Shown: in pieces, positions 4,478 through 5,999 of the stretch | Numbering within the stretch: the stretch's first letter is position 1 | Layout: each line of letters opens with the position of its first letter | IMG/VR virus record: IMGVR_UViG_2695420687_000005 | Span: 1 to 10,870 of that record | Origin: a virus | Lineage: Duplodnaviria; Heunggongvirae; Uroviricota; Caudoviricetes | Reading direction: 5' to 3' (one strand) | DNA: 10,870 bases | The notes under the pieces: generated by a model | Database searches by the model: none | Seen by the model: the letters and a program-made list of their open reading frames with translations, nothing else | What the model was told of the DNA's origin: nothing | Program-made: the position numbers and the translations under genes

Positions 4478-4609
4478 CGCCATCAGCATTTTCACAACGG
4501 CTTTGCGAACCCTCGCTGGCGCGCCTACCGCACACAACGGCTTGTGAACTTCACCCGGATAGAACACAACAAAATCGCCTTCATTAAGGATAACGGTCTT
4601 CAACACGTC
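4478..4609 (-). pseudogene. 3' fragment (about 44 codons) of a YhcH/YjgK/YiaL-family (DUF386) gene
   Basis: Minus-strand translation [44 protein letters not shown] resembles the conserved C-terminus of E. coli YhcH-type proteins (...FAVFMPGEPHKPGCVVGE...KKVVVKV) as recalled. Upstream of this the frame runs antisense through tail-fibre repeat DNA, so only the 3' end is genuine. An inverted repeat (cgccgtaaa...tttacggcg, 4439-4466) lies just downstream. Confidence 0.4.
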
Positions 4610-5999
4610 TGAAGCACTGGCCGCAACGCCGAAAGCGGTAAAGGCTGCATATGACCTTGCTAACGGGAAATATACTGCACAGGACGCCACCACAGCGCAA
4701 AAAGGCCTTGTCCAGCTCAGTAGCGCCACCAACAGTGATTCTGAAACGCTTGCGGCAACGCCGAAAGCGGTAAAGGACGCCTATGACCTTGCTAACGGGA
4801 AATATACTGCACAGGACGCCAGCACGGGGCGAAAAGGTCTTGTTCAGCTAAGTAGTGCCATCAACAGCGAATCTGAGACGCTCGCAGCAACGCCAAAGGC
4901 GGTTAAGACAGCATATGACCTTGCTAATGGCAAATACACTGCACAGGACGCCACCACGGCACGAAAAGGGATTGTTCAGTTAAGCAGCGCCACTAACAGC
5001 GATTCTGAAACACTTGCCGCGACTCCAAAAGCGGTTAAAGCCGCGAATGACAATGCAAACGGGCGCGTTCCTGGTGAGCGTAAGGTCAATGGCAAACCGC
5101 TGACCAATGATGTCAATATTACATCGCAGGATATTTTTAACGGTCAGAGTATTGGGATTGGTGCAAACCAGAATCTGGATAATTACAAAACGCCGGGACT
5201 GTACCATCAGCCACTGAATGCGAATACAAGCGCATCGCTGAAATACCCGGAGAATCTTGCAGGTACTCTGGTTGTGCTTAGAAATGCCGGAATAACACAA
5301 ATTTACTATGTCTATAACACATCAAGAAGCTATACCCGCAGCCAGTATTCAACGGGTGGCTGGACACCATGGACACCGCAGGATTCATTTCCGGTAGGTG
5401 CTCCAATCCCGTGGCCTTCTGATTCAGTACCTACAGGCTATGCCCTGATGCAGGGGCAGGCTTTTGATAAAGCAGCCTATCCCCTGCTTGCAGTAGCTTA
5501 TCCGTCAGGGGTGATTCCAGATATGCGCGGCTGGACAATCAAGGGCAAACCCGCCAGTGGTCGCGCCGTATTATCACAGGAACAGGACGGAATTAAATCA
5601 CATACCCACAGTGCCAGTGCATCCAGTACGGATTTAGGGACGAAAACAACCAGTTCGTTTGATTACGGGACAAAAACGGTCAGCACGTTTAACCACGGCA
5701 CAAAAACGACAAACAATACGGGAGCACATACGCACACTGTCGGTGGTCGCTATGGTGGTGACTCTGTTGGTGGTAAACAACGCGTACAGGTATCAGGAAC
5801 CAACCAGGTGTCAAGCTCTGCCGGAGCGCACGCCCATACTGTTGATATTGGTCAGCATAATCACACGGTTGGCATTGGTGCCCATGCACACACTGTGGCA
5901 TTGGGTGCGCACGGACATACCATCACGGTTAACGCTACTGGTAATGCGGAAAACACCGTAAAAAACATTGCATATAACTATATTGTGAGGCTTGCATGA
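4563..5999 (+). pseudogene. Tail fibre protein, C-terminal two-thirds only; 5'-truncated, with no start codon before the GTG at 5274
   Basis: The frame is open from the stop at 4560-4562 to the stop at 5997-5999. It encodes 3.2 copies of a 44-aa tail-fibre repeat ([44 protein letters not shown]) and a His-x-His tip ([35 protein letters not shown]). No ATG, GTG or TTG occurs in frame between 4563 and 5273. Confidence 0.85.
4620..5045 (+). repeat. Tandem direct repeat of 132 bp, 3 full copies plus a partial fourth, in frame inside the tail-fibre gene
   Basis: Copies begin at 4620, 4752, 4884 and 5016 (partial) and are nearly identical at the nucleotide level. Each encodes one 44-aa tail-fibre repeat unit. 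Confidence 0.9.

Follow-up and report, generated by a model that had tools for sequence, protein, structure and literature searches.

The stretch of DNA analysed here (the window, 10,870 nucleotides) is a P88-like (Xuanwuvirus, Peduoviridae; P2-family) Escherichia prophage, collinear with other P88-like prophages apart from positions 3142-4601. The plus strand carries the 3' end of a capsid gene, a small terminase gene, a head-completion gene, a holin region and an M15 endolysin gene and, further downstream, the tail-fibre, macro-domain and tfa genes. The gpU and tape-measure genes lie on the minus strand. An inversion was considered for these minus-strand U and T genes and rejected, as their order is the normal one in P88-like phages. 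No Rfam family or tRNA was detected in the window, and its promoter and terminator scan returned sites no more numerous than in shuffled sequence. Coordinates of the features discussed below are collected in Table 1.

The intact relative used for comparison (L007, GCA_012082805.1) shares 99.90% identity with the window over positions 1-3141 (L007 1108-4247) and 99.87% over positions 4601-10870 (L007 8606-14875), so that downstream of the junction the two differ at 8 of 6270 positions. From position 4792 to its end, the window is matched at 100% identity by a Logan contig (L011). Between the two arms L007 carries 4358 bp more, absent from the window. This absent DNA encodes the rest of a DUF2570/LysB-type gene, LysC, GpR and GpS, the baseplate proteins V, W, J and I, and codons 1-186 of the tail fibre.

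Table 1. Positions of the phage-derived and chromosome-derived features of the window
Position	Strand	Feature	Basis
2843-4351	-	Chimeric 502-codon ORF: 403 yjgL-family codons (4351-3142), then antisense phage lysis-gene DNA (3141-2843)	Translation
2949-3141	+	5' remnant (64 codons) of a DUF2570/LysB-type lysis gene; last phage base 3141	L001/L007 homology stops exactly at 3141
3142-4601	.	Host-chromosome piece (5' part of a yjgL allele, intergenic region, tabA 3' end) in place of 4358 bp of phage DNA	
4437-4470	-	Hairpin with 12-bp stem just downstream of the tabA stop, within the chromosomal segment; same in L003	
4475-4601	-	3' end of tabA (yjgK, DUF386): last 42 codons and stop	Translation; tabA annotated in L003 5334-5786
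4563-4601	+	13 opening codons of the fibre frame: antisense tabA, not fibre	Three-way junction alignment (window, phage, chromosome)
4602-5999	+	Tail-fibre remnant: codons 188-652 of the intact 652-aa gene and stop, without start codon, ribosome-binding site or N-terminal domain	
4608-5003	+	Three full 132-bp (44-aa) units: 4608-4739, 4740-4871, 4872-5003	TRF
5004-5063	+	Partial fourth unit (20 residues); sequence departs from the repeat afterwards	
5382-5996	+	Distal receptor-binding part: Collar (5397-5540) and tip rich in His-x-His motifs, T4 gp37 tip homologue	
5996-6865	+	Macro-domain gene (289 aa), intact; its ATG shares bases with the fibre stop (ATGA)	PF01661, E=5e-19
6890-7465	+	Intact tail-fibre assembly (chaperone, tfa) gene	PF02413, E=8e-39; PHROG 105, E=4e-89

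The tail-fibre remnant and its missing N-terminal module

The fibre frame follows a TAG at 4560-4562, opens at 4563 on the plus strand and is closed by the TGA at 5997-5999. Its first in-frame ATG, GTG or TTG is the GTG at 5274, and the 237 codons before it are free of initiators, as coordinates and ORF list agree; on this point the preliminary description of the stretch was accurate. It was equally right in calling the product a tail fibre. The fragment contains four Phage_fiber_2 repeats (PF03406, E=8e-70) and a Collar domain (PF07484, E=1e-9) at its residues 279-326, and it matches PHROG 295, 'tail fiber protein', with E=4e-175. The distal part has wider relationships: the T4 gp37 structure (PDB 2xgf) matches residues 448-652 of the L007 fibre with E=1.1e-76, and fibre genes of two phages of ~170 kb share 82.8% DNA identity with this part.

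That the gene is 5'-truncated and start-less, and that the domain attaching the fibre to the baseplate is missing, had also been proposed, and both claims are borne out. Alignment to the 99.9%-identical full-length homologue, the 652-aa fibre of L007, begins only at its codon 187. Fibre codons 1-186 are gone, true fibre sequence begins at about 4602, and what remains is a gpH-type fibre reduced to its 3' 465 codons, about two-thirds of the gene. The Phage_tail_fib domain (PF12571), which occupies residues 6-153 of the intact L007 fibre, is absent from the window fragment. In P2-type fibres such as P2 gpH, the N-terminal module is the part that attaches to the baseplate, and it is nearly invariant among otherwise divergent fibres. 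A P2-family fibre is recognised by this PF12571 module, by shaft repeats followed by Collar and distal tip, and by a complete ORF standing after gene I and before tfa. The fragment has the shaft repeats, Collar and tip and lacks the PF12571 module; its start and gene I are gone, and tfa is present.

The length of the initiator-free run is a different matter. Since the intact L007 fibre gene likewise has no in-frame ATG, GTG or TTG between codons 156 and 412, the long run is a property of the gene and not of its truncation. Downstream of the remnant, the macro-domain protein is known from identical copies placed after full-length fibres in intact prophages, as found by protein look-up.

The 132-bp repeats of the fibre shaft

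Tandem Repeats Finder (TRF) reports a single in-frame tandem array at 4608-5063 (period 132, 3.5 copies, 81% matches, score 590). The preliminary description had noted in-frame 132-bp tandem repeats with three full units, which is correct, and had called them nearly identical, which they are not. Pairwise DNA identities of the three full units are 86.4%, 81.8% and 81.8% (18-24 differences per 132 nt), the corresponding protein identities being 84-91%. Each pair of units differs by 9-17 synonymous codon changes against 4-7 non-synonymous ones. Compared copy for copy, the window units are 100% identical to those of L007; for copy 1, the orthologue in L005 is also 100% identical and that in L004 93%.

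A recent expansion should leave the copies closer to each other than to their orthologues. We found the reverse, 82-86% identity within the array and 93-100% between orthologues. With such identities, with differences that are mostly synonymous and with units fully shared with L007, the idea of recent expansion or gene conversion is not supported. The repeats are 44-aa Phage_fiber_2 shaft domain repeats inherited unchanged from the intact gene. Because the units are identical to those of intact L007, the array is older than the truncation and has escaped homogenisation in this lineage. They are old, diverged repeats, and their codon differences show the pattern left by protein-level selection.

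Repeat turnover nevertheless occurs in this fibre family. The number of AATPKAV motifs is one in L001, two in P88, three in L005, L006 and L008, and four in L007, L009, L004 and the window, whose count thus equals that of L007. In all these relatives the first motif stands at residue 194 and the spacing is 44 residues. Copies 2 and 3 of L004 are 95.5% identical. Homology between the window and L005 breaks within copy 3 (~4919) and resumes at the collar (5391). These mosaic boundaries fit a long-known pattern in which unrelated phages swap parts of their fibres. The proposal that the repeats serve as recombination substrates is reasonable, given the range of one to four motifs and the break of L005 in copy 3, but it is not new. 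It is likewise plausible, and already known, that both the repeats and the collar boundary may act as exchange points.

The chromosomal segment and the probable origin of the truncation

The DNA that separates the two phage arms is of chromosomal origin. Positions 3142-4601 align with E. coli NZ_CP144926 4163212-4164671 (L003 4001-5460) with 0 mismatches in 1460 bp, and no phage record matches them. Their GC content is 30-40% versus about 52% in the phage flanks. The gene run of NZ_CP144926 at the matching stretch is argF - yjgL-family gene - tabA - pyrLBI; the run pyrBI-tabA-yjgL-argF-rraB is common to L003 and L015, the latter carrying a 528-aa form of the yjgL gene. The yjgL allele of the window is rare. 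It is covered to more than 80% in 2 of the 5426 complete E. coli genomes, the other matches being alleles of about 75% identity at the same locus. The donor locus adjoins pyrBI and the prophage adjoins flk (in L007, L011 and L014); the two are apparently not chromosomal neighbours, a point that counts against capture of the segment by the prophage.

Because the insert cuts both the yjgL allele and tabA in mid-gene, the minus-strand 502-codon ORF and the fibre frame are chimeras. The former has the same start as a 417-aa yjgL-family gene annotated at L003 3957-5210. Homologues of its yjgL part are YjgL-type 'DNA-binding protein' entries with PF13981, and the chimeric ORF itself has no Pfam or NCBIfam match. 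We considered it as an inserted foreign or defence gene and rejected this, since it is a yjgL-family fragment fused to antisense phage DNA. At the left junction, the frame of the LysB-type remnant continues for 8 codons of foreign DNA before its stop at 3165-3167; the intact L007 gene encodes 135 aa.

The chromosomal segment also contains a perfect palindrome at 4437-4470 (TTCGCCGTAAA...TTTACGGCGAA), which folds with a second stem at -22.8 kcal/mol (z = -2.05). It was examined as a crossover half-site of the Hin/Gin type and rejected, being a hairpin in the tabA 3' flank, the same in L003, with neither an invertase nor a partner site.

A start-less fibre fragment followed by a tfa gene is what one would expect of a silent alternative fibre cassette in an invertase-driven host-range switch (Mu G, P1 C, e14 P, P88 type), and P88 does have an inverted 247-aa fibre fragment with tfa adjoining a DNA invertase. 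Such cassettes are recognised by an adjacent Din-family serine invertase and by flanking inverted crossover sites, one of which lies within a complete fibre gene, and neither was found. The window contains no ORF with an invertase or recombinase domain, whereas P88 has one at L002 11854-12441; inverted matches within the window are only partial, 14-23 nt long and at chance level; and instead of a crossover site, chromosomal tabA lies directly upstream of the fragment. Nor is there a complete fibre gene in the window to switch with. Moreover, in the 99.9%-identical L007, which has no invertase, the same sequence is the 3' part of an ordinary 652-aa gene. With no invertase and no crossover sites in the window, a silent invertible cassette can be rejected.

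Both junctions were mapped by three-way alignment of the window, the phage (L007) and the chromosome (L003). At the left joint (...GGCGCAAC / ACAGTGAC..., 3141/3142) the two parents have 0 nt in common. At the right joint (...GGTCTTC / AACACGTCTGAAG..., 4601/4602) they have 1 nt in common, C4601 being assignable to either parent. Both joints are blunt and cut genes on each side. From 4602 on, the sole difference in fibre DNA from L007 is A4603, where L007 and L004 have G; the two bases at 4602-4603 (AA) can be read as 2 nt of filler or as phage sequence carrying a single G>A change. IS elements, att sites, att-like repeats, tRNAs, Chi sites, invertase genes and significant inverted repeats are all absent from the window. 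The rearrangement is thus a one-block substitution, with 4358 bp of phage DNA out and 1460 bp of chromosomal DNA in, at homology-free joints. Illegitimate deletion with filler is marked by the absence of IS, att and recombinase sites, by 0-1 nt of homology at the joints and by an insert of traceable origin, and all three marks are present here.

We looked for the same arrangement elsewhere. The left junction has no match in species-representative genomes, the right junction none in species-representative genomes or metagenome contigs, and among 5426 complete E. coli genomes no match extends across either of them. The protein collection has no entry for the ORFs specific to the junctions. Since neither junction occurs in the collections searched, the rearranged structure rests on one sequence.

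Such uniqueness, together with blunt joints and an insert 100% identical to a reference chromosome, would also be seen if the 1460 bp had been joined to the phage in silico, in a chimeric contig or during construction of the sequence, with the real fibre gene intact. Assemblers, however, join at shared repeats, and no sequence is shared at these joints; an artefact would have to combine two independent misjoins, one on either side of a short unique fragment. Nor has the repeat array collapsed, its four motifs being those of L007. Finally, A4603, which lies beside the joint and differs from both L007 and L004, resembles a repair scar more than a cut-and-paste product. We therefore regard such an artefact as unlikely.

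Less probable still is a reciprocal exchange, in which two successive inversions or a translocation swapped the middles of the prophage and of the tabA-yjgL region, so that the 5' part of the fibre gene and the baseplate genes lie elsewhere in the genome. It would account for a distant segment lying precisely in the phage gap, with the arms in their original order and orientation. Yet it demands four homology-free breakpoints, as against two joints and a loose fragment, and no repeats or IS are present at the breakpoints to drive inversion.

The feature is very probably a non-functional, 5'-truncated remnant of the fibre gene of a P88-like prophage, produced by one recent replacement of 4358 bp by 1460 bp in which chromosomal filler was captured. 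One rearrangement would have taken out the 3' part of the lysB-type gene, the whole of lysC, R, S, V, W, J and I, and fibre codons 1-186, and a 1460-bp piece would have been copied or moved from the host tabA-yjgL region into the gap. A double-strand break in the prophage may have been sealed by illegitimate, homology-independent joining that took in a stray chromosomal fragment as filler. Joining of this kind is the most likely route, because the joints are blunt and interrupt genes; it could have been end-joining repair or a topoisomerase-type exchange. Topoisomerase-mediated homology-independent recombination would be an alternative route to such joints. Capture of 'filler DNA' is familiar from eukaryotic end-joining; to our knowledge, it has rarely been documented in enterobacterial genomes.

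As for end-joining repair, RecA-independent alternative end-joining with large deletions has been described for E. coli in two papers (PMC4872102, PMC6054270, citing Chayot et al. 2010), where the pathway is said to use or favour microhomology. The present joints share 0-1 nt, whereas the described pathway uses microhomology, and this speaks against end-joining.

The event must be recent, because the insert has no differences from its chromosomal counterpart, intact prophages encode the identical macro-domain protein, the downstream arm departs from L007 at just 8 of 6270 positions, and L011 is fully identical from 4792. We put it at an even chance that the window preserves a natural and very recent homology-free sealing of a prophage double-strand break in wild Escherichia, with capture of 1.46 kb of distant chromosome, which killed the prophage and left the receptor-binding cassette (fibre tip, macro, tfa) intact, so that superinfecting phages could pick it up by recombination.

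Consequences for the prophage can be predicted from its gene content. No fibre is likely to be made or mounted, because the remnant lacks an initiator, a ribosome-binding site and a baseplate-binding domain, and no infectious particles are expected from the prophage, because the genes for the baseplate and for tail completion are gone. The fibre would be neither translated nor mounted, baseplate and tail-completion proteins would be missing, the spanin genes appear lost and the prophage would be defective; it should be scored as such because it has no baseplate genes, no tail-completion genes and no spanins. The holin, endolysin, head, tail tube, sheath, tape-measure, macro and tfa genes would stay intact. 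The only role left to the remnant would be that of a passive donor, supplying receptor-binding sequence to incoming phages by recombination.

Taken as a gene, it is a recently inactivated and ordinary tail-fibre pseudogene, whose only unusual element is the captured chromosomal filler at blunt joints. The ORF should be annotated as a tail-fibre pseudogene, and it has little significance beyond annotation. The minus-strand 502-codon ORF should be annotated as a chimera of yjgL' and antisense phage DNA, not as a new gene. If the junctions are true, they offer a clean and datable example of homology-free deletion with chromosomal capture in an enterobacterial genome, a prophage having been disabled in one step with its host-range module left intact.

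Comparison with known systems

The nearest known system is the full-length fibre of the P88-like, P2-family phages (P2 gpH type; L007 8046-10004, 652 aa; P88 gp39), whose codons 188-652 match the window DNA except at A4603. The L007 fibre and the window have in common four Phage_fiber_2 repeats, the Collar, a gp37-like tip and the macro and tfa genes that follow. They differ in that L007 has codons 1-186 (PF12571), a start and gene I upstream, whereas the window has chromosomal DNA there.

As to the event itself, alternative end-joining of E. coli, as described in the papers cited above (PMC4872102, PMC6054270), resembles the window in giving a large deletion without the signature of an IS or a site-specific recombinase. 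The pathway described there works mainly through microhomology, whereas the window has 0-1 nt and a captured fragment of 1.46 kb.

The cassettes inverted by Din invertases (Mu Sv', P1, e14 StfE, P88 gp42) also consist of an initiator-less 3' segment of a fibre gene followed by its own tfa. Unlike the window fragment, they work within an invertible segment equipped with an invertase and inverted crossover sites.

With the tip of the T4 gp37 long tail fibre (PDB 2xgf) the window shares homologous C-terminal 205 residues and repeated His-x-His motifs. In the window, by contrast, this tip stands on a P2-family shaft, is accompanied by a lambda-type Tfa chaperone and is probably not expressed as a fibre.

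Lambda PaPa stf (orf-401/orf-314) is the classic case of an inactivated side-tail-fibre gene; its product is a homologous fibre of the same repeat-bearing family and shows 63.5% amino acid identity over 70% of the fragment. The shaft repeats of the window are common to lambdoid Stf proteins, with about 61-64% amino acid identity to lambda and its relatives. In the lambda record stf is split into two ORFs, and a C missing relative to Ur-lambda is mentioned in a related record. Both genes have been inactivated by mutation with tfa retained. The lambda gene, however, carries a single-base frameshift in an otherwise complete sequence, whereas in the window the 5' third of the gene has been deleted and replaced.

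Fibre tip and genes downstream

The tip of the tail-fibre gene is clearly an inter-family mosaic. His-x-His motifs recur in it, the gp37 tip of T4 (structure 2xgf) is a match at E=1e-76, and the DNA of this part is about 83% identical to the fibre genes of two phages of about 170 kb. In the fibre of a related prophage (L004), adjacent 132-bp shaft units 2 and 3 share 95.5% identity; the units of the window share 82%. The L004 value therefore indicates that recent duplication or conversion of repeats occurs in this family.

Immediately behind the fibre gene, its stop codon is overlapped by the ATG of a macro-domain gene, whose product belongs to PHROG 2613. 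The order fibre-macro(-tfa), tfa being the fibre chaperone gene, is found also in P2-like prophages, in E. coli plasmids of ~95-155 kb and in lambdoid Gifsy-1.

The chimeric reading frame and the right junction

The 502-codon ORF, for which Pfam and NCBIfam gave no match, has the look of a novel gene but is in fact a chimera: 403 codons come from a rare yjgL-family allele and 99 are antisense phage DNA. The closest full-length form of this allele is P0001, a protein of 528 aa (PF13981) whose name derives from Escherichia albertii. At the matching chromosomal locus of E. coli NZ_CP144926 (L003), the yjgL-family gene is broken into two ORFs, of 417 aa and 101 aa.

Directly beside the right junction, position 4603 is A in the window and G in both L004 and the intact relative prophage L007. 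This A is to be read against the count for the whole 6270-bp arm, which differs at only 8 positions, and it may represent a repair scar or a 2-nt filler.

Variation among relatives

Fixed spots of one prophage backbone hold differing extra genes among relatives. The window carries neither the serine O-acetyltransferase at the tfa/gpU spot nor the 625-aa SASA/DUF6645 protein at the spot between lysis genes and R.

Coordinates of features in the window and in related loci
Feature	Locus and position	Strand	Remark
502-codon ORF	window 2843-4351	-	yjgL-family/antisense phage chimera
Fibre tip	window 5382-5996	+	
Macro-domain gene, 289 aa	window 5996-6865	+	between fibre and fibre chaperone genes
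Tape-measure gene	L009 7048-9876		
Serine O-acetyltransferase	L001 10764-11336; L004 6926-7498		between tfa and gpU
SASA/DUF6645 protein, 625 aa	L006 2399-4276		between lysis genes and R
PIN_12 protein or unannotated 340-aa protein	L005 18500-19522; L006 18549-19619		between gpD and ogr
Inverted tfa, start-less fibre fragment and DNA invertase	P88 (L002) 10293-12441		fibre fragment beside the invertase

In the metagenome contig L009, two separate gene calls, of 237 and 604 aa, take the place of a single 933-aa tape-measure gene; this contig may hold a further copy of the same prophage in decay.

In the type phage P88, an inverted tfa, a start-less fibre fragment of 247 aa and a DNA invertase lie side by side. 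The lineage of the window (L007 type) differs from P88 in possessing the macro gene and one tfa, without the invertase.
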